DNA of 64,000 nt, taken from contig PRDH01000081.1 in assembly GCA_003345545.1 (NCBI GenBank), positions 56,483-120,482 on the forward strand, in the 5' to 3' direction. Position 1 is the first letter of the stretch. Each line of letters starts with the position of its first letter. The stretch is from Candidatus Thorarchaeota archaeon (GTDB lineage: Archaea; Asgardarchaeota; Thorarchaeia; Thorarchaeales; Thorarchaeaceae). The notes beneath the pieces are model-generated. The model saw only the letters and a list, made by a program, of their open reading frames with translations, ran no database searches and was not told where the DNA came from. The position numbers were made by a program, and so were the translations under genes. Below are positions 3,557 through 23,924 of this stretch, piece after piece.

Positions 3557-3616
3557 TCAATACACCTATCCTTTCTCTTGCATAGTCCTGAAAAAGCATT
3601 TAGGCGTGGCAACGCT

Positions 3617-4390
3617 CTATCCCTTTTCGCCCTTGAAGACGGCAAAGAACGGAATTCGATGCTCTCGATCAAAGAACGCATCATCAGCTGTTGGCTGGGG
3701 CTCTCTGAAGGCTACGAGATTGAAGCCAGAAGCAATTAGCGCATTCAGGTATGTGCCAAGAGTTCTGTGAAAGAAGCTTATTGCTGCTGGAAATCTCTCG
3801 CCTGTCCGAGTGGTCCAATAACGTTCGTACTCTCTCTCATCAAAGTACTTGTCGACTTTGAAGTACACCCCCTCTCTTCTTCCAGTCTTAGGGTCTTTCT
3901 CACCCATCTCCCAAGAACCAGGACCATAGAGATTGAAGGCAGGGTGCACGATGGAGAATACAAGATGTCCACCTTCTCGAAGGACTCGGTAGAACTCTCT
4001 GAGTGCCTCTCTGAGGCATGGAACATTCAGAAGGACTAGATTTGCGAGCACAATGTCGAATTCGTGGTCTGGAATCGAATCCAGATGACATATGTCCGTC
4101 GCTCTGTATTCAACGATGATTCCCTCGCGCTTTGCCAGGCTCCTAGACGTTTCTATTAGACGCTCAGATAAGTCGACAGCAGTGACAGAAGCTCCCTTCC
4201 CTGCGTAATATCGAGATAGGTATCCCTCTCCACACCCTGCATCAAGGAGCTTCTTGCCCTTGACATCACCGAGGAGCTGCTCGACGCATGGATTCAGAAT
4301 GTGTCTGTGGTGAGGTGTACCACTTTCTGCAATGAGATCCGCGAATGCCTCTGCATTAGCTTCCCACTGCTGTCGAAATCGGTCGTCCAT
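3617..4390 (-). CDS. Class I SAM-dependent methyltransferase
   Basis: LLDAGCGEG motif I; RVLREGG. Confidence 0.9.
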   Translation of the reverse strand: MDDRFRQQWEANAEAFADLIAESGTPHHRHILNPCVEQLLGDVKGKKLLDAGCGEGYLSRYYAGKGASVTAVDLSERLIETSRSLAKREGIIVEYRATDICHLDSIPDHEFDIVLANLVLLNVPCLREALREFYRVLREGGHLVFSIVHPAFNLYGPGSWEMGEKDPKTGRREGVYFKVDKYFDEREYERYWTTRTGERFPAAISFFHRTLGTYLNALIASGFNLVAFREPQPTADDAFFDREHRIPFFAVFKGEKG

Positions 4391-5819: not shown

Positions 5820-5926
5820 TGGTGGACCGGGCGAGATTTGAACTCGCGGCCTTCTGAAGTGTCGGCCTGTGGCTAACACCAGCAAGCTTGCGAATCAGAC
5901 GATCTACCGGTCTGATCTACCGGCCC
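5820..5926 (-). tRNA. tRNA-Ala(CGC) with 30-nt intron (5859-5888) at position 37/38; CCA encoded
   Basis: Reverse complement folds as GGGCCGG acceptor (G3:U70), TCTGA/TCAGA anticodon stem with TTCGCA, TTCAAAT T-loop, ACCA end; 77 nt after intron removal. Confidence 0.93.
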
Positions 5927-5978
5927 ACTGAGATGCTTCTCCGTATGGATTTCTTAAAAGATTGTCTGCTCATATGAA

Positions 5979-6272
5979 TCAGATCTCAATCCCAAATGCC
6001 TCGGAGAACCGTTCCATTCTAAGGAACTCCCGAAGGAACTCTCTGCCTTTCTCTGTCAGCAGGTATGACCGATTGTTACTATCAGGGCCCACCTCTTGCA
6101 CGAGTGCTTTTTCGACCAGTTCTTCCAGATATTGGGTCAATCGATCATGGGACAGATTTGCCGCGTAGAGTATCTTAGTCGGGCCTGTGCCTTCCTCCCC
6201 CTCACTCTGAATGGCACGCATCATATCTGCTAGGATGCGCATCTTTGAGCGATAGGGTCGCTTCTTACTCAT
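5979..6272 (-). CDS. Winged-helix DNA-binding protein (archaeal HTH_45-like)
   Basis: RSKMRILADM..., TKILYAANLS, YLLTEKG. Confidence 0.85.
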   Translation of the reverse strand: MSKKRPYRSKMRILADMMRAIQSEGEEGTGPTKILYAANLSHDRLTQYLEELVEKALVQEVGPDSNNRSYLLTEKGREFLREFLRMERFSEAFGIEI

Positions 6273-6886
6273 ACGTTTCGGCCTGCCTTATAGAGCATGA
6301 CCAATAGCGACAAGAAACCAAGGAATTGCGCTCCTTGGCTCAACAGATAGAGGCCGGGAGCTGCAGCGACTTGAGCCATCATAATGTGGCTCAATAGGAT
6401 GAGGAAGAATCCAACTAGGACATAACGTGCGAACTTGCTACGCGTTGCCAAGTAGTTGAGGATGGCCTGGAGAACCACCACGACTAGTACCAGTATTGCA
6501 ACGATCTCGAGACTCGGATTGACCAGAAAGGTTGCCATCAACAGCATAGTGACACTTGCTGTGTCTTGGTTCTCTGTTTCCCTACGTGTGGGTTTCGTGG
6601 AGATTACGAAAATGGCATAGGCCATGATTCTGGATACTCCGTAGGCTATTGTGACAATGTCGGAGATTACATCTGTTGGTTCCCTTACAAGAAAATACCA
6701 TGTCCCAATCACTCGCCCGAACATGCCTGCAGATAGGACAAGGAATCCAGTAGATAGATCTGAGAGTCTCTTCTCACCAGTCAGTCGATATGCCTTTGTG
6801 GCATAGTAAGACACCATCAAGGCGATTATCCCACTGACTGCTTCAAAGAGTAAGTCTAGTCTGATGATTCCGGGATCTACTTGCAT
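6269..6886 (-). CDS. Hypothetical multi-pass membrane protein, coupled to the wHTH gene
   Basis: About 6-7 TM segments; 4-bp overlap with the next gene. Confidence 0.75.
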   Translation of the reverse strand: MQVDPGIIRLDLLFEAVSGIIALMVSYYATKAYRLTGEKRLSDLSTGFLVLSAGMFGRVIGTWYFLVREPTDVISDIVTIAYGVSRIMAYAIFVISTKPTRRETENQDTASVTMLLMATFLVNPSLEIVAILVLVVVVLQAILNYLATRSKFARYVLVGFFLILLSHIMMAQVAAAPGLYLLSQGAQFLGFLSLLVMLYKAGRNV

Positions 6887-7254
6887 TGGGTGACGCCTGT
6901 CCTATTCTTGTCAGCTTTGGTCTTATTACTGGTGAATGAATCATCTATGGCTTTTCTCTAATTCGGTGACATAATCCCCTGCTTCAGACGGTCTTTAGTG
7001 CGGATACTTCTTCTAGATGAATCATCTAGTGGTATCGTTCATCGCGCCTTTATATCGAGAATGCACTATACTTAACGTGCAAATCATGGAGCATGCCAAG
7101 AAGGCACTTGCATTCGTGGTTGCACAGATGGGCCGAACTCTCACGGCCCAACACATGATGGAAGAGTTCCGACAACTGCAAGATGAGCAGACAGGTAGAC
7201 ACTGTTTCTGCTTTGAAAGGCGGAGGAAACTCCGCCCTTCCATCGCCTTTTGTT

Positions 7255-9864
7255 CTATCCCTCTTTCTTCTCTAGCATAGACTCTATCTTGTCCAATCGG
7301 TCCTTGAGGTCTCTGTTTTGTTTCTCCAGTTCTTCTATACTCTTTTTCAGAGAATCGATTTCTTTTGGCTCCTTCTTCTTGCTCAGGTTTCTAATAGCAA
7401 TCCTGCATCTACGAACGGTTCCACTCTCGGCAGCCTGCTCAGCAAGCCGTGACAGCGCAGGTATGAGAGATGCGTCCTCATAGTCTGAAATTGCGGAGAT
7501 CGTCATGCTCTGCACTCGGTATGATTTGTCAAGGATATGACTCTCAAGGATTGAGCGTATCTCGGGATGCTCCTTTTTGAAGCGCTTTCCAAGAGTGGCA
7601 AGCATGCTAGGAATAGCACGTCGAATCCAATCGCTGTTGCCCAGTTCGAGGTACTTCTTGACAACGTCAATGGCTTCCTCTTTCTCAGTCGCTGCAATTC
7701 CCTCTAGGCAGCCTATCTCGACGATATCGTGCCAGCCTGGAGGACATTTCTTCAGGAATTTTGTCAGAATGGCAAATGCATCATCATGTTGCGTCTTGCC
7801 AATGGATGTTGCAGCAGCTGCCACCACAAAGTAGCTCTCCGTATCTCCTAAGATCTTTCTTAGAGCTGTTAATGCTTTGTCGCTCTTGTAGAACTCACCG
7901 AGAGCTCTGGCGACAGCGGTTCTCGCCTTTGTGTTCTTTAGTGTGGTTGCCTTGAGAAGCCATTCTAGAGCCGGCTCGGACTTTAGCGAGCCAAGGACTC
8001 TAGCAATCTCGACCTGTGTTCCCCAGAATTTCTCCTTCAGAAGCACCTCTCCAAGAGCTCCAACAGCCTTTGGGGTTGCCTTCTTCCCCAATGCCTGTGC
8101 AGCTTTGATTTTCTGGATGGTATTAGTCCCGTTCTGTAGCTGTTCAATCCACATGGGTTCGGGTTTCTCAATATTCCAGTCCATCAGAGTCGCATAATCA
8201 GGATCAATTACTATCTGCGCTGGCTTGCTTCGAACTGGATAATAGAAACCATGCACTCGTTCATTGACCTGCATGGTATGGCGGACCCGTGTTCCTTTTT
8301 CATCTACAGACTCCACTGTGAGTGGGAATCGAAACATCTCTGGTGTCATCCCGTCATCACTACTCTGAGTCTGTTCAATGGTTACATGTACGTGGCCAAG
8401 CATCTCATCATGGGTGACCTTAATCTTGCACTCCGGGTATCCTGCCTTGTATAGCCACTGCTCGAAGAACCAACCGAAGTCTTCACCTGTCATCTCCGTG
8501 AATAGGCTCTCTAGGTCGTGTGTGTAGGCAGACCTGTGGGAGAACCGGGTCAACCACTCACCTAGTATCTTCCACCAGCGGTCCTCCCCTACAAGATGCT
8601 TCAACATATAGTATCTCCATGCTGCTCCCGGGTAGAGATGGGCATCAAAGACATCTGAGCCTCGTTCCCACTCATTCTTCACGATTGGTCGACGGTATCT
8701 ATTCTTGTCCTCGTCAAAATAGGACTGCTGCTTTCCGTATTGATCATAGAGATACTCCTCTTCGCCCTTGTCATGGCGTTTCCACTCATTCTGCATCTGA
8801 GTCCCCCACCCCTCATTGAGCCACCCATGTGACCACGTTCTGCATGTGACAAGGTCTCCGCCCCACATATGCGCCAGCTCATGTGCAACAAGGCCCTCTG
8901 AGTCAAAGTCGTTATGCGTCTTCCCATCGTGGAGCGTGGCGTCAGTCTGCGTAGTTGCACTGACATTCTCCATTCCCCCAATGACGAAATTAGCAGCAGT
9001 CACTTGCGCGTATTTTGCCCACGGGTATCTGACTCCAAGTTTTGACTCAAAGAATCTAATCATCTCAGGAGTCTTACCGAAGGAACGGTATACCGTTTCC
9101 CTGTCCCACCTCTTGTGGGCATAATAGCTTACTTCTAGACCGTTGAAACTTTCCTTGTACTCCACATATTCCGAAACTGCTATCGTCATTAGGTATGCGG
9201 GAATGGGCTTCTCTTGTACCCAGTGGAAGGTTTCCGTTCCATCACTGTTCTCTGTTCGCTCTTTCAAGTAGCCGTTGCTCATCGCAAAGAAACCCTTCGG
9301 AACGGTGACGACTGTTTCAACAGGGAACTTGTGACTTGGGTTATCATATACAGGAACACAATACCGTGCATAATCATCCTGCATCTGTGTCCAAGCACTG
9401 GTCTCGACATCTGGAAATTGAGGGCTTCGGTTAGTGAAGTACAGTCCAGTTCGAGGATGGTCTATGGAATAAACAAAGGTCAGCTCTTCCATCTCTCTCT
9501 CGTTCAGAGTCTGAACCAAGTCAACTGACATTGTCTGTTCGTCTGGCATCATCTCAAATCTCAAAGAGTTTCCTTCTTTGTCAGTTACTCTCTCAATCAT
9601 CAATTCCGTTGCGTGTAGAAAGACTCTCTTTAGTTCCGGAGCAATACTCTCTATACGAATTGAAGAAACTGCATCAACATGCTCATTCCCTAGATTCATC
9701 TTCCACTCCAATTTCAGATGCAGAATATTGTAGTGCCTTGGAGGTGCCCACTGAGGTTTTGCTGTGGGAAAAGTAAATCCCTCTCTCTCAGCCATTAACA
9801 TGTTCTCCGCTTCTCGGATGCCATCGCGCATCAATGACTCAAGATACTTATGAAAATCCGTCAC
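7255..9864 (-). CDS. pepN: M1 family aminopeptidase N with C-terminal HEAT repeats and coiled coil
   Basis: GGMEN, HELAH...E (WLNEG) zinc motif; HEAT-like repeats. Confidence 0.9.
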   Translation of the reverse strand: MTDFHKYLESLMRDGIREAENMLMAEREGFTFPTAKPQWAPPRHYNILHLKLEWKMNLGNEHVDAVSSIRIESIAPELKRVFLHATELMIERVTDKEGNSLRFEMMPDEQTMSVDLVQTLNEREMEELTFVYSIDHPRTGLYFTNRSPQFPDVETSAWTQMQDDYARYCVPVYDNPSHKFPVETVVTVPKGFFAMSNGYLKERTENSDGTETFHWVQEKPIPAYLMTIAVSEYVEYKESFNGLEVSYYAHKRWDRETVYRSFGKTPEMIRFFESKLGVRYPWAKYAQVTAANFVIGGMENVSATTQTDATLHDGKTHNDFDSEGLVAHELAHMWGGDLVTCRTWSHGWLNEGWGTQMQNEWKRHDKGEEEYLYDQYGKQQSYFDEDKNRYRRPIVKNEWERGSDVFDAHLYPGAAWRYYMLKHLVGEDRWWKILGEWLTRFSHRSAYTHDLESLFTEMTGEDFGWFFEQWLYKAGYPECKIKVTHDEMLGHVHVTIEQTQSSDDGMTPEMFRFPLTVESVDEKGTRVRHTMQVNERVHGFYYPVRSKPAQIVIDPDYATLMDWNIEKPEPMWIEQLQNGTNTIQKIKAAQALGKKATPKAVGALGEVLLKEKFWGTQVEIARVLGSLKSEPALEWLLKATTLKNTKARTAVARALGEFYKSDKALTALRKILGDTESYFVVAAAATSIGKTQHDDAFAILTKFLKKCPPGWHDIVEIGCLEGIAATEKEEAIDVVKKYLELGNSDWIRRAIPSMLATLGKRFKKEHPEIRSILESHILDKSYRVQSMTISAISDYEDASLIPALSRLAEQAAESGTVRRCRIAIRNLSKKKEPKEIDSLKKSIEELEKQNRDLKDRLDKIESMLEKKEG

Positions 9865-10049
9865 CTGGGCTCTCTCCAGTTTCTTTTACTGGGCTTCTCC
9901 ACGGATGGAGTATGTTATGAAGTTTCGTGCCTCCGCAGGTGAAAGCGCACTGAGAGCCAAGCTTGACCAGAATCATCTACTGAATGGCTCACGAATGGAG
10001 CCGCATAGCCCTTTTCTGTGGGTGCAGTTGTTTCTTTAGCAGCCCCTTG

Positions 10050-10065
10050 GAAAGCTTTTTATTAG
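10050..10065 (+). promoter_or_regulatory. Putative BRE/TATA promoter of the 16S rRNA gene
   Basis: GAAAGCTTTTTATTAG upstream of the rRNA leader. Confidence 0.4.
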
Positions 10066-10227
10066 AACTCTTCGCGGAAGAGTTTGCTTTCGCATCATAC
10101 GGTGTCAGGCCGGATGCTGTCGGCGAATGCCAAGCTATGATGGCTCGTGATTTCCAGATGCGATGACAAGATGCGGACGTGAGATAGACTGGCACACATG
10201 TGACAGAATACCCTCAGGTCTAAGAAA

Positions 10228-10300
10228 GGCTCAACAGTGTGCAGGTATAACATGGGTAAGCTATCTCTGCTAACCCCGTTAAGCCTGTACTTCATCAAGC
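10228..10300 (+). other. 5' strand of the 16S pre-rRNA processing stem (leader)
   Basis: GGCTCAACAGTG pairs with 12087-12098; GGGTAAG with CTTGCTC; TCTCTGC with GTGGAGA; CCCCGTT with GACGGGG; CCTGTACTTC with GAGGTACAGG (12007-12016); CAAGC with GCTTG. Confidence 0.8.
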
Positions 10301-11237
10301 GAATTAAGTTCTGTGTGTAAAAGTGTTGTACAAAGTGACTGAGTACTACTCCAGTCATTCCTTGCTAAGATGTACAATATTAGGACCAACTCTAGTTGAT
10401 CCTGCTAGAGGACACTGCTATCGGCTTGGGGATAAGACATGCAAGTGGAACGGGCTCGCATCCGAGTCCGTCGCGAACGGCTCAGTAGTGTCGCTAACCT
10501 ACCCTGTGGAGGTGGACAACGCCGGGAAACTGGCGTCAATCCATCATAGGAGCATCGTTCTGGAAATGATGTTGCTCTCAAAAGGATGTTCCAGGCATGT
10601 GGGACACTCCGCCGCAGGACGGGACGGCACCGGATCATACTTGTAAGTGGGGTAACTGCCCACTTAGGTTATGACCCGAACGGGCGATGTAAGTCGTGGC
10701 CCGGAGAAGGGCACTGAGACAAGGGCCCTAGCCCCACGGGGCGCAGCAGTTACGAGACCTCACCAATGCGCGAAAGCGCGAGTGGGCTAAGCCGAGTGAT
10801 GGGGGATAACTCCATCTGTGGCGGATCCGCAGGGTGGACCGCTAGAAAGGAGAGGGCAAGGCTGGTGCCAGCCGCCGCGGTAAAACCAGCTCTTCGAGTG
10901 GTGTCCACAATTATTGAGCTTAAAGCGTTCGTAGCCTGCTTGGTAGGTCCCTGCTTAAATCCGGTCGCTCAACGATTGGTCTGGTAGGGATACCACCTTG
11001 CTTGGGGACGGGAGACGGTGACGGTATTCCGTAGGTAAGGGTGAAATCTAATGATCTACGGAGGACCACCAGTGGCGAAGGCGGTCGTCGAGAACGTGCC
11101 CGACGGTGAGGAACGAAACCTAGGGGAGCAAATCGGATTAGATACCCGAGTAGTCCTAGGTGTAAACGATGTCCGTTAAGTGTTGCATTGGCCACGAGCC
11201 ACTGCAGTGCTGTAGCTAAAGCGATAAACGGACCGCT

Positions 11238-11301
<64 letters not shown>

Positions 11302-11746
11302 GCTTGCGGTTCAATTGGACTCAACGCCGGAAAACTTACCCGCCCAGACAGCCGAATGAGAGCCAGACTGATGATCTTGCTCGACGAGCTGAGAGCTGGT
11401 GCATGGCCATCGTAAATTCGTGCCGTGAGGTATCAGCTTAAGTGCTGCAACGAATGAGATCCTCGCCACCTAGTTGCCAGCCGGGAGTTTAGGCTCTGAC
11501 GGGGCACACTAGGGGGACCGCCAGCGAAAAGCTGGAGGAAGGTGGGGGCCACGGTAGGTCAGTATGCCGCGATATGGGCGGGGCCACACGCGTGCTACAA
11601 TGGCTGGGACAATACGTAACAACGCCGAAAGGTGAAGTCAATCGCGAAACCCAGTCGTAGTCGGGATCGCGGGTTGGAACTCACCCGCGTGAACCTGGAA
11701 TCCCTAGTATCCGCGTGTCACTATCGCGCGGAGAATACGTCCCTGC

Positions 11747-11776
11747 AGGGGACGTGAATCTCACGTACCCGGGGAA
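11747..11776 (+). other. 30-nt BHB intron in 16S (after ~E. coli 1386)
   Basis: Helix CCCT/GGGG, bulges GC^A and AA^T, internal hairpin; removal gives CCCTGCTTCTTGCACACACC. Confidence 0.85.
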
Positions 11777-11879
11777 TTCTTGCACACACCGCCCGTCGCT
11801 CCACGCGAGCTGTTCTTGGGTGAGGCGTCATCCACTGGGTGATTACGAATCTTGGGACGGCAAGTGGGGAGAAGTCGTA

Positions 11880-11909
11880 AAGTTGTTAGACTTCCTAGCG
11901 ACTCGATTA
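11880..11909 (+). other. 30-nt BHB intron in 16S (after ~E. coli 1499)
   Basis: Helix GTCG/CGAT, bulges TA^A and TA^A, 9-bp hairpin; removal restores AAGTCGTAACAAGG. Confidence 0.9.
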
Positions 11910-12003
11910 ACAAGGTATCCGTAGCGGAAGCTGCGGATGGATCACCTCCTAAGTTTTCACCATCTTCAAGATGGTGAAGATTAGCTTGCCTGTCTTCGGA
12001 CAG

Positions 12004-12115
12004 GTAGAGGTACAGGCCTTCGACGGGGAACGCGGTGCAATCGTAAGGTTGCCCCGACGCCAAAGTGGAGAACTTGCTCTTGCTGTCGCTGTTGAGCCAC
12101 CCTTTTCCTTTTTCA
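12004..12115 (+). repeat. 16S 3' trailer repeat copy 1 (resident; processing-stem 3' strand plus T-rich terminator)
   Basis: GTAGAGGTACAGGCCTTCGACGGGGAACGCGGTGCAATCGTAAGGTTGCCCCGACGCCAAAGTGGAGAACTTGCTCTTGCTGTCGCTGTTGAGCCACCCTTTTCCTTTTTCA. Confidence 0.92.
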
Positions 12116-12230
12116 TTCATTTACATATGCAAGTTGACTCTCTATGTGTCATCTTGGAGGAAGTCCTTTCTTGATTTTCTCCAAGAGATCTCGTACCTCG
12201 CCAAACATCGCATCATAATCGATGACTATG

Positions 12231-13442
12231 CTAGAGTATCTCCGGAGTCGATTTTGAATCAATACCTGTGCGAGTCGCGCGAATTCTTCGTCTTCTCCAA
12301 CGAAGACCAAGGATACCAATAGTGAGTGCAATTGCAATTCCAGCGGTTCCAATGACTATCAGTAGAAGGTCCTCTTGACCTGAGAGGAGAAGCATGTCAA
12401 GATTGCCTCCTGCAGAGGTTCTGAGAATACAGCCATCGTATCCTACTACCCATCCGTGCAACTCATCAACGAAACAGACAGCCATCCTGCGACTGCCTAT
12501 GTCGGTAGGAACTGATTGTTGATACCAGGTACTTCCACCATTCGGCGTGTGCATCACAGGGATCTCATCGCCTACGATCCATCCGTGCTGGTCATCAATG
12601 AATTGTATATCTGAACAATATGGAGATCTGAGCCGAAATGAAGGAAGTCTTCCGGGGACAGCCAGCTCCTCCCACGTATGGTCTTGCTCCATGTGGAGGA
12701 GGTAGCCATCACTGACACCCCATGCTTCGTCTTCGTTGGGAAACGATAGGCTCCAGCCTCCCTTATCAAAGACCTTCTCCCAGGTCTCCGCGCCATCATC
12801 GCTATGGTAGATACCATCATAGCCAATCGCCCATACTTCATGCTCGGTCAAGAAATGCATGTCCCGAGGATTATCGTCAAACGTCCAACCAGTCATATTC
12901 TGCCAGGTCTGCCCTCCATCAGTTGTTTTGAAAAGCATCTGCATCGTGGCAGTCCATCCATGGGTCTCATTGAGGAACTCCACCGTACTCATGGTCGACA
13001 GACGATTACTACCCGCAAGAGAGGTATGCCATGACGCTCCACTATCGTTTGTGAAGTAGAGACGACCGAGTCCAGTCACCCATACTGTTCGATCATTCAC
13101 TACCTCAATTTGTCTGAATATCTGCGAATCATCAGCGAGCTGGGTCTCCCAGGTGTCCCCACCGTCTTCTGTGTGAAGAATAATACCACCTCTAGTTATG
13201 TTAGGGTACAATATTCCCACGACCCATCCGTGAGAGGAATTGATGAACTCAACATCACGAAATGTAGCCTCTGGGTAGTCGCTCTCAAGGGATATCCACG
13301 TTGTGGCCTGAGTCTGTGCAGGTCCTATCGACGCTGCATCTGTAGAAGTTATAGGCAGACCTGTGTATGCAAATCCAAGTAGGATCAGCAGTAGTATAGC
13401 ACTGAGCCTGCGACCGGTTCTGGATGTTCTCAGGGGAATCAT
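12231..13442 (-). CDS. Secreted, membrane-anchored YCF48/BNR-repeat beta-propeller protein (cassette cargo)
   Basis: Repeated TxDGGxTW Asp-boxes, F...HGWVVG, signal peptide, C-terminal TM. The ORF-track N-terminus runs through the repeat, so start reset to 13442. Confidence 0.85.
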   Translation of the reverse strand: MIPLRTSRTGRRLSAILLLILLGFAYTGLPITSTDAASIGPAQTQATTWISLESDYPEATFRDVEFINSSHGWVVGILYPNITRGGIILHTEDGGDTWETQLADDSQIFRQIEVVNDRTVWVTGLGRLYFTNDSGASWHTSLAGSNRLSTMSTVEFLNETHGWTATMQMLFKTTDGGQTWQNMTGWTFDDNPRDMHFLTEHEVWAIGYDGIYHSDDGAETWEKVFDKGGWSLSFPNEDEAWGVSDGYLLHMEQDHTWEELAVPGRLPSFRLRSPYCSDIQFIDDQHGWIVGDEIPVMHTPNGGSTWYQQSVPTDIGSRRMAVCFVDELHGWVVGYDGCILRTSAGGNLDMLLLSGQEDLLLIVIGTAGIAIALTIGILGLRWRRRRIRATRTGIDSKSTPEIL

Positions 13443-13518
13443 GCTCAGCTTATTCCTTACAGAATTGGTCTTGAATGAGTTATCATATAGGTCTTTGTCC
13501 ACCTTAGGTGGATACGAA

Positions 13519-13629
13519 GTAGAGGTACAGGCCTTCGACGGGGAACGCGGTGCAATCGTCAGGTTGCCCGATGCCAAAGTGGGGAACTTGCTCGTGCTGT
13601 CGCTGTTGAGCCACCCTTTTCCTTTTTCA
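13519..13629 (+). repeat. 16S trailer repeat copy 2 (long type)
   Basis: Near-identical to copy 1. Confidence 0.92.
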
Positions 13630-13736
13630 CCCATCTATCAGACTCAGTGGACCATTTATCAATTGATTTAAGAATCAGTCTGACTCCAAGTTCCTTGACT
13701 TTGATTACGTGGTAATGATAGGGTGGCTAATGAAGA

Positions 13737-14192
13737 ATGACCAGTGACAGACTGGCAAAATGGATCATGGCTATTACAACTCTGTTTGCCCCCTTTGGCG
13801 TGTACGCTTTCTCAGTACGTAACTCTATCCTCACGGTATCAATGCACGCTGTGTTATGGGGTATCATGCCAGGAGAGTCTGGAAATACTGGGTCGACACT
13901 ATTTGATATGTACATCATTATAGGGAGGGGTTTATTTTATGGCATCTTTAACATCTGGTTTGGCATAGAGGTCATCAGATACTTCAATGACTACACCCGT
14001 AGACGAATGGCCATTCAATCGGGAATCATATCATTACTCTACCCCTTTGCAATGGTCATCATTTCATGGCCTTGGCTTCAACATTCAACAACATTTGAGT
14101 ATCTTGGACCAATTCCCATCCAATTTATCGTTGGTCTCTTGTTGATGAAGTACTTTGGAGAACAAAAACCTCTTGAACCTTGGAGCGATTAA
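13737..14192 (+). CDS. Hypothetical membrane protein (cassette cargo)
   Basis: 151-aa ORF with about 4 TM segments, immediately after repeat copy 2. Confidence 0.75.
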   Translation: MTSDRLAKWIMAITTLFAPFGVYAFSVRNSILTVSMHAVLWGIMPGESGNTGSTLFDMYIIIGRGLFYGIFNIWFGIEVIRYFNDYTRRRMAIQSGIISLLYPFAMVIISWPWLQHSTTFEYLGPIPIQFIVGLLLMKYFGEQKPLEPWSD

Positions 14193-14376
14193 AATAGTGG
14201 CATTTGCTTCTCTATCTACTACCTCGGTGGAAACCCTCTCTTGACACGTTTTAGCATGAATCGCATATTGGTTGAGAGTAGTTAATATTGACCGTTTCAG
14301 ACAACTACATAGAGAGTTGATTCACAATCCCATAGATGAAAGAGTTTAATTCATAACCTTCGGATGGTAGTACATA

Positions 14377-14613
14377 ATGATGAAAGTAAAATTCACTGCT
14401 GTTGTATGGGAAGAAGAGGGGACATACGTTTCCAAATGTCCCGAGATTGATGTATCATCTGCAGGGGACACCGTTGAAGAGGCTCTGGCTAACCTCACAG
14501 AGGCAATAGAGCTCTGGCTCGTCAATGCACGTGAGCTTGGAATCATGGATGAGTATCTTCCGATGATGACTGCCTCTGAGAAGTCCACACGTACGATCGA
14601 GATCAACGTCTGA
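14377..14613 (+). CDS. hicB: HicB-family antitoxin
   Basis: YVSKCPEIDVSSAGDTVEEALANLTEAIELWL. Confidence 0.9.
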   Translation: MMKVKFTAVVWEEEGTYVSKCPEIDVSSAGDTVEEALANLTEAIELWLVNARELGIMDEYLPMMTASEKSTRTIEINV

Positions 14614-14658
14614 GTTCTAGATTTGTATGGCCGTTATAGCTGGCACACAGTGATGTCA

Positions 14659-14892
14659 ATGAGTAAGTTACCTCAGATCAGTAGTAAGAAGCTCATCCGG
14701 AGGTTACTCAAGGCTGGTTTTCAATACGCTCCTGTGAAAGGAAAAGGTAGTCATACCGCTCTCGTCAGGTATGATGATAATCGACCATATCTCGTTATCA
14801 TTCCTCACAGAGATCCGATTCCAAAGGGAACTCTTCTCTCAATCATCAAACAGAGTGGACTATCAAAAGAGAAATTTCTAGGCTTGTTATGA
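14659..14892 (+). CDS. hicA: HicA-family toxin
   Basis: GF...KGSH, VIIPH...IPKGTLLSIIKQSGL. Confidence 0.9.
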   Translation: MSKLPQISSKKLIRRLLKAGFQYAPVKGKGSHTALVRYDDNRPYLVIIPHRDPIPKGTLLSIIKQSGLSKEKFLGLL

Positions 14893-14940
14893 AGATTCGA
14901 GTACTCCTTTTGAAGGACTGACTTGTTCATCCCAAATGAA

Positions 14941-15047
14941 TACAGGTCTTCGACGGCGGGGAACGCGGTGCAATCGTCAGGTTGCCCGATGCCAAAGTGG
15001 GGAACTTGCTCGTGCTGTTCGCTGTTGAGCCACCCTTTCGTTTTTCA
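14941..15047 (+). repeat. 16S trailer repeat copy 3 (long type)
   Basis: TACAGGTCTTCGACGG...GCTGTTGAGCCACCCTTTCGTTTTTCA. Confidence 0.9.
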
Positions 15048-15091
15048 CTAGTTACTTCAATCAGTGCTGATTGAGGTTGAATGCAGGAGTT

Positions 15092-15298
15092 TCAAGTCTC
15101 TCTGTAACTGAGTTTCAATATTGCTAGAGCCACTGCAGATAGACCTAATGCAAGCACGATCATTTGAGCTCCAGCTATCACATCTGCGTTGAAGCCGCCC
15201 GATAGACTACCCAAGAGTAATGTTGCTGTTAATAATGCTAACACTACTAGAATATACACCAAAACTGATAGAACTCTCTGATGATTAATTGGAAACAC
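15092..15298 (-). CDS. Small two-TM membrane protein (cassette cargo)
   Basis: 68 aa, two hydrophobic helices; only plausible gene between copies 3 and 4. Confidence 0.6.
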   Translation of the reverse strand: MFPINHQRVLSVLVYILVVLALLTATLLLGSLSGGFNADVIAGAQMIVLALGLSAVALAILKLSYRET

Positions 15299-15404
15299 CT
15301 CCCAGTATTACATAACTAGAGATTCACTCAGAAGAACCTTCCTCTTCTATCCTAGTATTCCATGTTATCAGCTTTTCCGAATGCATATCTCTCTGATGGA
15401 CCTC

Positions 15405-15480
15405 GGGTACGGACCAACGGGGTCGGACTGTCGGGGAACTTGCCCCTGCTGTCGCTGTTGAGCCACCCCTTCATTCTTCA
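15405..15480 (+). repeat. 16S trailer repeat copy 4 (short type)
   Basis: GGGGAACTTGCCCCTGCTGTCGCTGTTGAGCCACCCCTTCATTCTTCA; lacks the GCAATC/GGTTGC hairpin. Confidence 0.85.
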
Positions 15481-15512
15481 GCTGGCTGTTTGAGTGCAGA
15501 TTGATGGAGGAG

Positions 15513-15541
15513 TTTATATATCTACATCTACACATGTAGAT
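15513..15541 (+). promoter_or_regulatory. TATA box plus inverted-repeat operator upstream of vapBC
   Basis: TTTATATA followed by ATCTACA-CA-TGTAGAT. Confidence 0.6.
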
Positions 15542-15552
15542 TGTGAAGTAGT

Positions 15553-15801
15553 ATGACATCAAAGACAATCTCTGTGACAGAAGATGTCTACAACCTTCTC
15601 CGGAAGATGCGATTACCTGGTGAGAGTTTCGGTGATACCATCAACCGACTATGTAAGTCCAAGACATCACTCTCTCTCCGTATATGGGCTGAGTCCTCCG
15701 ATGGCTGGAGCGATTTGACCCCTGAAGAAGCTACACGACTGGAAAACACCCTTGAAACAATCCGCATCACACTTCATCCCGAAGAGGTCGATCTAGATTG
15801 A
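15553..15801 (+). CDS. vapB: VapB-type antitoxin (archaeal)
   Basis: KTISVTEDVYNLL...GESFGDTINRL; overlaps PIN gene. Confidence 0.88.
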   Translation: MTSKTISVTEDVYNLLRKMRLPGESFGDTINRLCKSKTSLSLRIWAESSDGWSDLTPEEATRLENTLETIRITLHPEEVDLD

Positions 15802-16205
15802 TCTTCTTGGACACCACCCTTCTTGTAGACATCCTGAGAAAGGATAGGGTGGCAATCTCATGGCTGAATGACCTTGAAGAGCAAGCTCTGTATACATCAG
15901 AAATCAATGTCTTTGAACTATATACCGGCCTCTTCCGCGTTTCCCAAGGTTCTACTACAAAAAGAAAGAAGAGGGCTCTCGAGCTCGAGCAACTTCTCTC
16001 CAGGATGGAAGTACTTACGTTTGACAGAAATGCTGCCATTGAATCCGCGAAGATACTCTCCCTCCTGATGAGCAGAGGAGAACCCATTGGTACGCGTGAC
16101 ATCATGATTGCTGGTGTGGCACTATCCACGGGGATAACACAGCTAGTGACACGCAATATCCAAGAGTTCCAAAGGATTCCAGGTATACGTGTTGACTCCT
16201 ACTAG
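15798..16205 (+). CDS. vapC: VapC PIN-domain toxin
   Basis: IFLDTTLLVD, ELYTG, DIMIAGVAL, LVTRN..EF. Confidence 0.92.
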   Translation: MIFLDTTLLVDILRKDRVAISWLNDLEEQALYTSEINVFELYTGLFRVSQGSTTKRKKRALELEQLLSRMEVLTFDRNAAIESAKILSLLMSRGEPIGTRDIMIAGVALSTGITQLVTRNIQEFQRIPGIRVDSY

Positions 16206-16683
16206 ATTGACTTCTTGCATGAATCAATAATCACGAAGCATAGAATGGTTCAATAACCTTGAAGCATATGAAGGCTGAAACCGTGTTAATCTCATTGCTG
16301 TTCTGTGGCAGTTCCCTGCAATCTCAGACGCCCCTCATTTCGAGATACTCTCTAGTCTTCGGTTGGTTTTCTTCATAGTTGTAATGACATACATCTGGTC
16401 TTCGCACTATCAGTCAATGAGTACTTACAAGGAAAATCAACTGCATTCAGGGTCTCCATACTCTGGGCTGTCAGTCAGACGCCTATTCATGTACTTAGCC
16501 TTCCCCGTTGTTTTACAGGGTCATATCCTGGATCGATCTTCTACACCGGTCCTACATTCATAATTCTGATTGCCGGGTTGCTCTTGATGAAGCTCGTTCG
16601 GCAACGCAGCAATAGGCTGTGGGTCGAGTCTACTCAGTAGGACACTCTCGAGACGATGAATCATGCATATGCTTTCAAGGCAA

Positions 16684-16771
16684 AATGCAGTGCAATCTTC
16701 AGGTTGCCCCGACGCCAAGGTGGGGAACTTGCCCCTGCTGTTCGCTGTTGAGCCACCCTTTTCTTTTTACA
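16684..16771 (+). repeat. 16S trailer repeat copy 5 (long type, 5' truncated)
   Basis: GTGCAATCTTCAGGTTGCCCCGACGCC...GCTGTTGAGCCACCCTTTTC. Confidence 0.9.
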
Positions 16772-16927
16772 ATATCTTTCAGAATGAGTTGAGTCTATTT
16801 TCTATCATGAGATCATTGTGATATTGAGATGTCCGTTAGAATTCTCTTCACATCATCTATTGTCAACAATCTGAAATGGACCATTATTGATGGTGTTTTT
16901 TTGAGCATCTCTATTGATTCAATCGAA

Positions 16928-17344
16928 TTAGATATTGGTCGGGTCAAGTCTTGTTAGACCTTCTATTCTATCATAGATACGATCTGTTGAAGCAATAGTA
17001 TGATCCGGATTGTCATTACTGAGTGAAACTGCTGCATAAATCGCATCAAAGATGGAACCCAATCTATAATTCTCCAAGAGATATAGCGCTGCTAGTTGAT
17101 GATCAATTGTAGAAGGGACAACTGAGATATTTGGGAACGTAACAACGTGACTTATGATATCACGAACTGAGGACACACCAGTGAGGTTTCTCAAGACATA
17201 GTAAAGTTCTATGGAGAAGATACTTGGAACAAGGACACTCCCGAACTTACCTTCTTCAATACTTGAGAAAAGTCGAGTCGCATGCGTTTTTAGATTGTCA
17301 TTCTTCTTATAGAACGCCAAGATCATATCGTTCTCGATTAGCAT
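16928..17344 (-). CDS. PIN-domain (VapC-like) toxin
   Basis: MLIENDMILA, IELYYV, IFDAIYAA, IASTDRIYD. Confidence 0.85.
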   Translation of the reverse strand: MLIENDMILAFYKKNDNLKTHATRLFSSIEEGKFGSVLVPSIFSIELYYVLRNLTGVSSVRDIISHVVTFPNISVVPSTIDHQLAALYLLENYRLGSIFDAIYAAVSLSNDNPDHTIASTDRIYDRIEGLTRLDPTNI

Positions 17345-17574
17345 TCCGTTTCTTTCCGCCTCCATCGTTTGGATACATCCTTCGCAATCTCTGCATCTGC
17401 TTTGGCAAGGAGGTCCGCAATTGGTCCCTCAATATCCAATTCTGGTTTATCAGAGGGGATAGGAAAGAGGATATGATAAGATCCAATGGTAAGGAGAAGA
17501 AAAGTATCTCCTTCGAGTCCTGCCTTTCTTGGGATTCTGATGCGTCTTTGATCATCCATTCGAACTCTTACCAT
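17338..17574 (-). CDS. AbrB/MazE-like antitoxin
   Basis: VRMDDQRRIRIPRK; overlaps PIN gene; GAGGTG Shine-Dalgarno (SD). Confidence 0.8.
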   Translation of the reverse strand: MVRVRMDDQRRIRIPRKAGLEGDTFLLLTIGSYHILFPIPSDKPELDIEGPIADLLAKADAEIAKDVSKRWRRKETEC

Positions 17575-17620
17575 CAAGATGAACACCTCGTATGATTGTA
17601 AGACAAATATGATTTAAAGA

Positions 17621-17652
17621 TATGGATGAAATTCACACTTTATGGATGAAAT
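17621..17652. promoter_or_regulatory. 12-bp direct repeat (TATGGATGAAAT x2), possible operator of the AbrB-PIN module
   Basis: Copies at 17621 and 17641, next to a TTTAAA box. Confidence 0.45.
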
Positions 17653-17720
17653 ATGTATATATTGACCTATTTCTATCAGGCTACAATATTCGGCGACATC
17701 TCATTCGATTGATTCAGGGA

Positions 17721-17786
17721 GTATCCGACGCGGAAGCTGCGGATGGAAGAAGTTGAGATTTCCTCATCTTCCATCACTCACCTCCT
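17721..17786 (+). pseudogene. Orphan 16S rRNA 3'-end fragment (h45 plus anti-SD) with its own 30-nt BHB intron (17748-17777)
   Basis: GTATCCGACGCGGAAGCTGCGGATGGA[intron]TCACCTCCT versus resident GTATCCGTAGCGGAAGCTGCGGATGGATCACCTCCT. Confidence 0.9.
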
Positions 17787-17951
17787 ATTTTTTCTACTTC
17801 ATAGAGGTAGAAGCAGCTTGGCTCGCAGTCCTTCGGGGCTGTGGGAGAAGTACGGGCCTTCGACAGCGGGGAACGCGGTGCAATCGTCAGGTTGCCCCGA
17901 CGCCAAAGTGGGGAACTTGCTCTTGCTGCGGCTGTTGAGCCACCCTTTTCG
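17787..17951 (+). repeat. 16S trailer repeat copy 6 (complete trailer with both upstream hairpins)
   Basis: Hairpin, AGCTTG, UUCG hairpin, then repeat; same layout as 11951-12115. Confidence 0.9.
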
Positions 17952-18050
17952 TTGTCTATCGTCAATTTCGGATGAGTGTAAGTCAGGTTTATCTTCTCTC
18001 TCGTTTGCTTTCAGGTTTAAATATGTGACTTGACCAAGTGGGAATAATCA

Positions 18051-19348: not shown

Positions 19349-19453
19349 GAAGTAGAGGGGGCGGCGAACGCGGTGCAATCGTAAGGTTGCCTCGACGCCA
19401 AAGTGGAGAACTTGCTCTTGCTGTTCGCTGTTGAGCCACCCTTTCATTTTTCA
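19349..19453 (+). repeat. 16S trailer repeat copy 7 (long type)
   Basis: GAAGTAGAG...GAACGCGGTGCAATCGTAAGGTTGCC...GCTGTTGAGCCACCCTTTCATTTTTCA. Confidence 0.9.
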
Positions 19454-19516
19454 TTAGAGCATTACTCAAATTCCTCTATCATAGTAGTGATATTTGGAAA
19501 TGTGAAGGATTGAATT

Positions 19517-20653: not shown

Positions 20654-20751
20654 GGACGGCGGGGAACGCGGTGTAATCGTCAGGTTGCCCCGATGCCAAA
20701 GTGGGGAACTTGCTCTTGCTGTTCGCTATTGAGCCACCCTCTCATTCTTCA
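20646..20751 (+). repeat. 16S trailer repeat copy 9 (long type)
   Basis: CGAAGTAG...GGGGAACGCGGTGTAATCGTCAGGTTGCCCCG...GAGCCACCCTCTCATTCTTCA. Confidence 0.9.
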
Positions 20752-20838
20752 CCCGTCTAATCACCCCAGTTGATTCTCCATTTGCTATCTGGGGATTCCA
20801 TCTAATTCATCACTTGGGTGGAGTTTCAGAATCTCCTG

Positions 20839-22255: not shown

Positions 22256-22336
22256 GAGAAGTATAGATTGGTGGAGTCTGGTAATCAGGGAACTTGCCCC
22301 TGCTGTTCGCTGTTGAGCCACCCTTTTCATTTTTCA
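22256..22336 (+). repeat. 16S trailer repeat copy 10 (short type)
   Basis: GAGAAGTA...TCAGGGAACTTGCCCCTGCTGTTCGCTGTTGAGCCACCCTTTTCATTTTTCA. Confidence 0.85.
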
Positions 22337-23743: not shown

Positions 23744-23850
23744 AGGTATGAGCCCTCGACGGCGAACGCAGTGCAACAGTCAGGTTGCCCCGACGTCAGA
23801 GTGGGGAACTTGCCCTTGCGTTCGTTGTTGAGCCACCCTCTTCATTTTAC
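23744..23850 (+). repeat. 16S trailer repeat copy 11 (long type, diverged)
   Basis: CTCGACGGCGAACGCAGTGCAACAGTCAGGTTGCCCCGACG...GTTGAGCCACCCTCTTCATTTT. Confidence 0.85.
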
Positions 23851-23924
23851 TTAGCGATTCCGCTACTAGGAACCACATCTTCATAGGCAGAGGGCACCAT
23901 AAACACCAATGAGATGATAGGTGA

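Follow-up and report, generated by a model that had tools for sequence, protein, structure and literature searches.

Why should four inserts, one in a tRNA gene, two in a 16S rRNA gene and one in a spare 16S tail, all be exactly 30 nt long and built alike? The question is raised by a 64,000-nt stretch of a Candidatus Thorarchaeota genome (the window: positions 56483-120482 of contig C81 in genome bin G000, 2.69 Mb in 82 contigs and 93% complete), for which a sequence-only reading had described four 30-nt introns and had proposed either a ruler-like constraint imposed by the splicing endonuclease or a common intron-generating mechanism that tailors a 4-nt helix to each new site. We infer that the inserts belong to the bulge-helix-bulge (BHB) class of intron and would be removed by the endonuclease EndA and the exon-joining RtcB (probability about 0.9). 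They are thus elements of a known kind, BHB mini-introns, and it is their unusually narrow 28-34-nt range that sets them apart. We ascribe that range, with a probability of about 0.6, to common descent of one intron type together with stabilising selection on a hairpin of 9 bp and a 5-nt loop.

Geometry of the four inserts and the splicing genes

Rfam matches in the window comprise one full-length archaeal 16S gene and one tRNA gene (Table 1), the 23S gene of this genome lying on another contig (G000:C34:17067-20140) and none following its 16S. One protein encoded in the window has close homologues exclusively in Candidatus Thorarchaeota bins, which places the genome among the Asgard archaea. 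ARAGORN without its intron mode called no tRNA in the window, and with -i gave unreliable intron calls. The 16S inserts were delimited in a MAFFT alignment of the gene from the window's own genome (G000) with seven other 16S genes, four of the same genus (genomes of which are termed congeners here, e.g. G001, G002, G006, G010, G013, G015 and G017), E. coli positions being approximate and numbered from the 1406R primer site. The alignment gaps fix the length of the 16S pair, and that of the tRNA-Ala insert follows from the 37 nt separating the two anticodon-stem strands, that is, 7 loop nt and 30 nt of intron (the orthologue in G001 is likewise 104 nt long). The orphan insert has the same size, and the length first read for all four therefore stands.

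Table 1. Features of the window: interrupted genes, their inserts and a repeat array downstream of 16S.
Feature	Position	Strand	Details
tRNA-Ala(CGC) gene, 104 nt with intron	5823..5926	-	Rfam RF00005, 56 bits, model positions 1-71
tRNA-Ala intron, 30 nt, canonical 37/38 site	5859..5888	-	BHB; A + 23-nt hairpin + CGAC + AC
16S rRNA gene	10389..11950	+	Rfam RF01959, 1246 bits, full length
16S intron 1, 30 nt	11747..11776	+	after GUCCCUGC, ~E. coli 1386/1387; exact 30-column gap vs seven other 16S genes
16S intron 2, 30 nt	11880..11909	+	inside AAGUCGUA|ACAAGG, ~1499/1500, within 1492R primer site; exact 30-column gap vs intron-less congeners
Orphan (spare) 16S tail	17721..17786	+	27 nt of helix 45, then 30-nt intron, then TCACCTCCT; blastn of 16S vs genome and pairwise blast
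Orphan intron, 30 nt, ~1531/1532	17748..17777	+	between helix 45 and anti-Shine-Dalgarno; A GAAGTTGAG ATTTC CTCATCTTC CATC AC
Highly conserved ~85-100-nt repeat, ten copies with the two partial ones below	12003-12115, 13519-13629, 14941-15048, 16684-16771, 17843-17958, 19362-19454, 20657-20752, 23744-23851	+	
Partial copies of the repeat	~15433-15480, ~22290-22336	+	

All four inserts start with A and parse, as the sequence-only reading had it, into 1 nt, a 23-nt hairpin, 4 nt complementary to the exon and 2 nt. Intron 1 of 16S reads A GGGGACGTG AATCT CACGTACCC GGGG AA, with exon strand CCCT and bulges GC|A and AA|T, and intron 2 reads A AGTTGTTAG ACTTC CTAGCGACT CGAT TA, with exon strand GTCG. 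In each case the 4-nt intron strand pairs with exon bases ending two positions before the 5' splice site, the canonical 3-4-3 arrangement of a BHB. The helix is complete (4/4) in 16S intron 1 (CCCU/GGGG), 16S intron 2 (GUCG/CGAU) and the orphan intron (GAUG/CAUC), and is paired at three of four positions in tRNA-Ala (UUCG/CGAC), where one mismatch had already been remarked upon. The loops AATCT, ACTTC and ATTTC were likewise correctly read, but 9-bp stems throughout the rRNA introns are a little overstated: only 16S intron 2 has nine pairs (9/9, two of them G-U), whereas 16S intron 1 and the orphan have 8/9 each, with one G-A and one U-U mismatch, respectively. The tRNA-Ala hairpin has nine pairs, one bulged C and a 4-nt loop. 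Folding energies, scored for three of the four inserts, range from -7 to -11 kcal/mol with z from -2.5 to -4.3 (tRNA-Ala, -9.8 kcal/mol, z = -2.5; 16S intron 1, -10.8, z = -3.8; orphan, -7.0, z = -4.3). By our own arithmetic, a random 30-mer would combine a 4/4 helix with at least 8/9 stem pairs with a chance of ~5e-5.

Two 3-nt bulges and a 4-bp helix place the cuts after the second bulge base, and these cuts reproduce the boundaries defined by alignment. Excision restores the conserved 16S letter for letter relative to the intron-less congener genes L005 and L006, and restores 7-nt anticodon or T loops in tRNAs. The strict hBHBh' form, with an outer exon-exon helix, was found only at the tRNA-Ala 37/38 site, where the anticodon stem provides it; at the 16S and T-loop sites the exon bases outside the bulges are unpaired, giving relaxed BHBs for which an EndA of broad specificity is needed. 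Since 30 nt leave no room for coding sequence, none of the inserts can carry a LAGLIDADG homing endonuclease. That they are real DNA rather than an assembly error is indicated by a 390-nt contig of the public wetland DNA run X1 (possibly the sample behind the genome assembly), which covers both 16S inserts with zero differences, and by DNA runs from two further studies, each containing 92% or more of the words sampled from the stretch.

A 30-nt hairpin at the decoding centre, beside the anti-Shine-Dalgarno sequence or in T and anticodon loops is incompatible with function, which speaks for the inserts being introns: none of these sites, the base of the anti-Shine-Dalgarno included, could tolerate a retained hairpin. 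Genes for the splicing are at hand. G000 encodes one RtcB (587 bits) and two EndA paralogues (PF01974) of 188 aa (C12) and 212 aa (C16), the former with Tyr, His and Lys at the expected catalytic-triad positions and the latter without the His, as read by eye with no alignment. The pair fits the (alpha-beta)2 type, judging from sequence, a type described for Asgard and TACK archaea and having a broad substrate range (PMC5829648). In the precursor RNA, four exon bases ending 2 nt before the 5' splice site would pair with four intron bases ending 2 nt before the 3' site, and the resulting 4-bp helix, flanked by two 3-nt bulges, would stack on the ~9-bp hairpin on the intron side. At most sites, as in the T-loop and the 16S decoding region, the outer exon-exon helix is weak or absent, and the long intron hairpin may substitute for it in presenting the site to EndA; RtcB would then join the exons and probably circularise the intron.

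Intron lengths in the genome, the genus and other Asgard archaea

Around 26 introns could be delimited in G000, ~14 of them exactly 30 nt long, ~24 within 28-34 nt and two at 61-63 nt. Those of exactly 30 nt are in tRNA-Ala-CGC, Thr-CGU, Thr-GGU, His, Leu-CAG, Leu-CAA (T-loop), Leu-GAG, Leu-UAA, Val-CAC, iMet (T-loop) and Gly-GCC, besides 16S introns 1 and 2 and the orphan; the other short ones have 29 nt (four), 28 nt (one), 31 nt (two), 32 nt (two) and ~34 nt (one). Just 23 tRNAs of G000 pass the Rfam cut-off and 12 of these exceed 100 nt (103-107, 115 and 135-137 nt). Infernal alignments place in them introns of 30 nt (Ala, Thr-CGU in the T-loop, Leu-UAA, Leu-GAG and, in the D-arm, Val-CAC), 29 nt (Asp, elongator Met), 31 nt (Ser-GGA) and ~32 nt (Lys, Val-UAC), and long ones of 61 nt (Trp) and 63 nt (Met).

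To avoid circularity, T-loop introns were also sought by tRNA features only (T-stem, T-loop consensus, acceptor and D-arm), allowing inserts of 8-100 nt and with the BHB motif kept out of the screen. Before the D-arm filter the background was flat at ~5 hits per length; after it, nine well-formed introns were obtained, five of 30 nt, two of 29, one of 28 and one of 31, all with a 4/4 helix and a clean hairpin (-6 to -10 kcal/mol), along with a few isolated longer calls that are apparently spurious. More tRNAs that had been hidden (His, Leu-CAG, Thr-GGU, Glu, Arg-UCU, Ala-GGC) came to light once BHB-like candidates were deleted and ARAGORN was rerun. Multi-intron genes measure 133, 148 and 162 nt, which corresponds to two or three ~30-nt units on top of the mature length. 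In this genus, mini-introns occur in all tRNA arms, often two or three per gene, and at the 3' end of 16S. The 162-nt gene, tRNA-Gly(GCC) (G000:C40 ~3560-3720, minus strand), has three introns, one in the D-loop (~30 nt), one at the variable/T-stem junction (~30 nt) and one in the T-loop (~31 nt), and only a few bases separate two of them. Scanning is informative only inside stable RNA genes: a genome-wide search for the 9+5+9 architecture (one mismatch, 3/4 helix pairs) returned 1964 hits with no loop enrichment and was discarded as noise, as was a first, likewise noise-dominated BHB scan on tRNA genes.

Several individual tRNA genes deserve mention. The introns of Trp (G000:C68:9443-9577), Met (G000:C16:48175-48311) and Leu-UAA (G000:C16:52378-52492) have in common a GGGGTCA(A) motif and AUGA-like elements, and their sequences are conserved across the genus; from these motifs, they may be candidate box C/D-like guide introns. 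In tRNA-Lys(UUU) (G000:C16:14685-14790) position 33 is C (loop CCTTTAA), as against the universal U33 (CTTTTAA) in four congeners, pointing either to an error in the assembly or to an unusual tRNA. Two TnpB-like open reading frames (571 and 552 aa) each adjoin a tRNA gene: one at G000:C22 ~8.1-9.8 kb beside tRNA-Gly (C22:10249-10323), the other at G000:C16 ~24.4-26 kb beside a doubly interrupted tRNA (C16:23757-23893).

The narrow size extends to the genus. Among the 132 tRNA matches in five congeners, full-length matches above 80 nt fall at 80-87 nt (7, class II or Sec), 103-108 nt (24), 111-119 nt (19) and 134-137 nt (8), with none at 88-102 or 120-133 nt, so that lengths are quantised at ~+30 and +60 nt. 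By contrast, four other Asgard genomes, one from another family of the same order and three from other families, have many tRNA genes of 88-102 nt, filling the gap, and the narrow intron size is hence specific to this lineage; the published median for Asgard tRNA introns is 22-23 nt (bioRxiv 10.64898/2026.10.13.758758). A broad distribution of lengths in the genome would have made four 30-mers a coincidence. With ~24 of ~26 introns within 28-34 nt, congener genes quantised and those of other Asgard archaea not, the four are no coincidence, and the size that they have in common genuinely characterises the lineage. What does not hold is a strictly fixed size, since 30 nt is a mode within 28-34 nt, Trp and Met have introns of 61-63 nt, and orthologues differ.

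Orthologous introns usually agree within ±2 nt, with gene lengths of 107-108 nt for Val-UAC, 105-106 for Lys, 134-135 for Trp and 103-105 for Thr-CGU, Leu-UAA being the loosest (115-119 nt, differences of up to 4 nt). The hairpin sequence is often wholly different between species, for instance Thr-CGU in G017 and Lys in G013, whereas the 4-nt strand and the two terminal bases remain constant despite this turnover. As 16S genes of congeners differ by 7-8%, unconstrained intron positions are probably saturated. Presence varies as well. The 16S genes of G006 and G017 are without introns 1 and 2, that of G015 lacks intron 1 and has a 30-nt intron 2 with three stem changes relative to the G000 copy, all pair-preserving. 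The working 16S of G015 also has, at the site of the orphan intron, a 32-nt homologue of that intron, the two having the same 5' arm and both the CATC strand. The three 16S sites are accordingly occupied in differing combinations among G000, G015, G017 and G006, and the elongator tRNA-Met intron lies at 28/29 in G000 and G001 and at 43/44 in G002.

Within G000, ten 30-nt introns show a loop bias (A at position 1 in 9/10, T at position 3 in 10/10, C at position 5 in 7/10). Mean hairpin identity over the set is 0.35, compared with 0.26 expected from composition; the top pairs reach 0.74 and 0.65 and most stems are unrelated. Outside tRNA and 16S, no polymorphic 30-nt insertion was found among five same-genus 23S genes, a comparison that fixed insertions would escape; these genes differ only by one expansion segment and one 783-nt intron (L081, G010:C21, position ~2576), from which the other four genomes are free. 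RNase P RNA (340 nt) and 5S have no such intron, and archaeal SRP RNA was not detected at E <= 0.001 in the 93%-complete G000, being possibly unassembled or itself hidden by an intron.

What keeps the introns near 30 nt

We favour descent with stabilising selection because length is kept through sequence turnover, because the changes that do occur keep pairs, and because the distribution is lineage-specific. Thirty nucleotides (1 + 23 + 4 + 2) would then be the modal size of a mini-intron family proper to this lineage, whose stems would drift by pair-preserving changes while the 4-nt strand is constrained by an exon partner that does not change. The fit of that strand to each site, for which a tailoring mechanism had been invoked, has no direct support as the product of such a mechanism and selection accounts for it just as well: an insert unable to pair with its site could not be spliced and would be lost, so that a seemingly tailored strand needs no special mechanism.

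Several points weigh against this interpretation, or against parts of it. No RNA evidence of splicing was obtained for the organism, the metatranscriptome contigs covering conserved 16S only. Other archaea splice introns with much shorter hairpins, a 9-bp requirement being no known property of EndA. Moreover, where introns lie outside 7-nt loops (D-arm, variable region), some of their boundaries could be off by 1-2 nt, and longer introns may be under-counted because detection favours short inserts and the tRNA census is incomplete. Finally, the loop bias is weak in orthologues of other species, and may reflect T-rich loops or shared descent within the genome.

The RNA data are also what would speak for the inserts not being introns at all, that is, for assembly artefacts or expansion hairpins retained in mature RNA, as no spliced RNA of the organism was seen. 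In six RNA runs, between roughly one third and one half of the 16S words are present, and none of the metatranscriptome contigs reaches the organism-specific stretch 11832-11903, whence any intron-less junction could stem from intron-less relatives; an RNA contig (X17) joining 11746 to ~11777-11785 was for this reason not counted, its shorter side being 21 nt and its register ambiguous. Given the DNA contig across both 16S inserts, the DNA runs of further studies, orthologous inserts in other genomes, the exact 3-4-3 geometry and sites intolerant of a 30-nt hairpin, we regard this alternative as scarcely credible. It also seems very unlikely that the size is set by a molecular ruler, with EndA, RtcB or a hairpin-loop-binding factor accepting only introns of ~30 nt. 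The narrow, lineage-specific size in the face of broad distributions in other Asgard lineages, the constancy of length despite complete hairpin turnover and the loop composition bias would all be expected of such a ruler, but the EndA of G000 appears to be of the usual (alpha-beta)2 type, with nothing pointing to a measuring enzyme, archaeal EndA is known to recognise the BHB and not intron length (PMC5829648, PMC4090602), and the same cell must also splice introns of 28-34 nt and, in Trp and Met, of 61-63 nt.

The size could instead be inherited, unselected, from a source copy, if the introns were a mobile family spread by copying, either at the RNA level, excised or circular introns being reverse-spliced into sites with matching 4 nt, or at the DNA level, with the help of a nuclease that cuts alleles lacking the intron (collaborative homing). 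We consider this less probable than not by some way, even though a good deal is consistent with it: presence or absence at three 16S sites among close relatives, the Met intron at 28/29 or 43/44, occupation of one T-loop site (58/59, strand GAAC + AA) in several different tRNAs, hairpins at different sites that are 65-74% identical where the set mean is 35% and the expectation 26%, the A-N-T-T-C loop bias that the introns have in common, and the two TnpB-like genes adjoining tRNA genes. Against it, no reverse transcriptase (RVT_1) was found in the 93%-complete G000 and no 16-mer copy of any intron-less 16S junction, as a guide would contain, elsewhere in the genome. Further, most stems are unrelated, and orthologous sites are retained across species 7-8% apart in 16S, which argues for old, vertically inherited introns; nor did the 2026 preprint on Asgard tRNA introns find a general route of arrival (bioRxiv 10.64898/2026.10.13.758758). 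That ORF-less hairpin mini-introns are actively being made or moved in this genus with their size preserved, by EndA/RtcB reverse splicing or nuclease-assisted homing, strikes us as improbable. Were it so, a size-preserving mechanism would seed BHB-compatible sites in tRNA, rRNA and possibly mRNA, a case of prokaryotic intron proliferation in the closest relatives of eukaryotes.

The orphan 16S tail and relation to known introns

The orphan tail opens with a 27-nt copy of the 3' half of helix 45, in which two mismatches disrupt two pairs, and its trailer is more like that of the resident 16S in G015 than like that of the 16S in its own genome. It may be a displaced or spare 16S tail keeping an intron that the resident gene lost or never had. 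A possible model, in which an element inserted at the 3' end of 16S and displaced the original tail, fits the trailers, but the repeat array (Table 1) extends past the orphan and the regions downstream of 16S in relatives are not syntenic. Copies of this repeat are 1.2-1.6 kb apart and end in GTTGAGCCACCC followed by a T-rich tail; copy 1 is directly 3' of 16S, copy 5 is 3' of the orphan tail, and a related element follows the 16S of congeners. It has no Rfam match, and its consensus folds without covariation. The element resembles a border between gene cassettes that can be exchanged downstream of 16S.

Among known organisms, Asgard archaea are the nearest relatives of eukaryotes, and the ways in which introns spread and are maintained in them are of broad interest. 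The genus offers a clean case, one architecture of near-constant size occupying dozens of tRNA sites and the decoding end of 16S and varying between close relatives, which opens both the constraint on size and the route by which introns are gained to testing. There is a practical side, too: because of the introns, standard finders miss about half of the tRNA genes, and as 16S intron 2 splits the 1492R primer site and intron 1 lies 5 nt upstream of the 1406R site, surveys of this group are biased. Our literature search found no description of Thorarchaeota rRNA mini-introns or of a 30-nt size mode.

A tRNA-Trp intron with a box C/D guide is present in Haloferax volcanii and other archaea. In the genus studied here, tRNA-Trp likewise has a long, genus-conserved intron (61 nt, at 37/38), an exception to the 30-nt size, whereas only a GGGGTCA(A) motif and AUGA-like elements are seen in it. 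Non-canonical and multiple tRNA introns of Thermoproteales were reportedly described by Sugahara in 2008 and Fujishima in 2010. Dense non-canonical tRNA introns are known from Thermoproteales, Atabeyarchaeia, Freyarchaeia and other Asgard archaea (PMC11291895; bioRxiv 10.64898/2026.10.13.758758), the preprint covering neither Thorarchaeota nor rRNA. The introns described here resemble them in occupying the D-arm, anticodon arm, variable region and T-arm, with several per gene, in their reliance on a broad-specificity (alpha-beta)2 EndA and in repeated gain, and differ from the published Asgard tRNA introns, of median 22-23 nt, in having 28-34 nt with a mode of exactly 30 and in belonging to a family found also in 16S. 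The 16S introns have their closest counterparts in the small (<50 nt) hairpin ('HP') BHB introns in 16S of Thermoproteales, Desulfurococcales and Aigarchaeota (Jay and Inskeep 2015, PMC4496867). Both are ORF-less hairpins with BHB ends, located in conserved 16S regions, interrupting universal primer sites and variable between relatives. Those described here are in an Asgard lineage, Thorarchaeota, and at sites ~1386, 1499 and 1531, compared with published loci at 374 to 1391, and their architecture and size are the same as those that dominate the tRNA introns.

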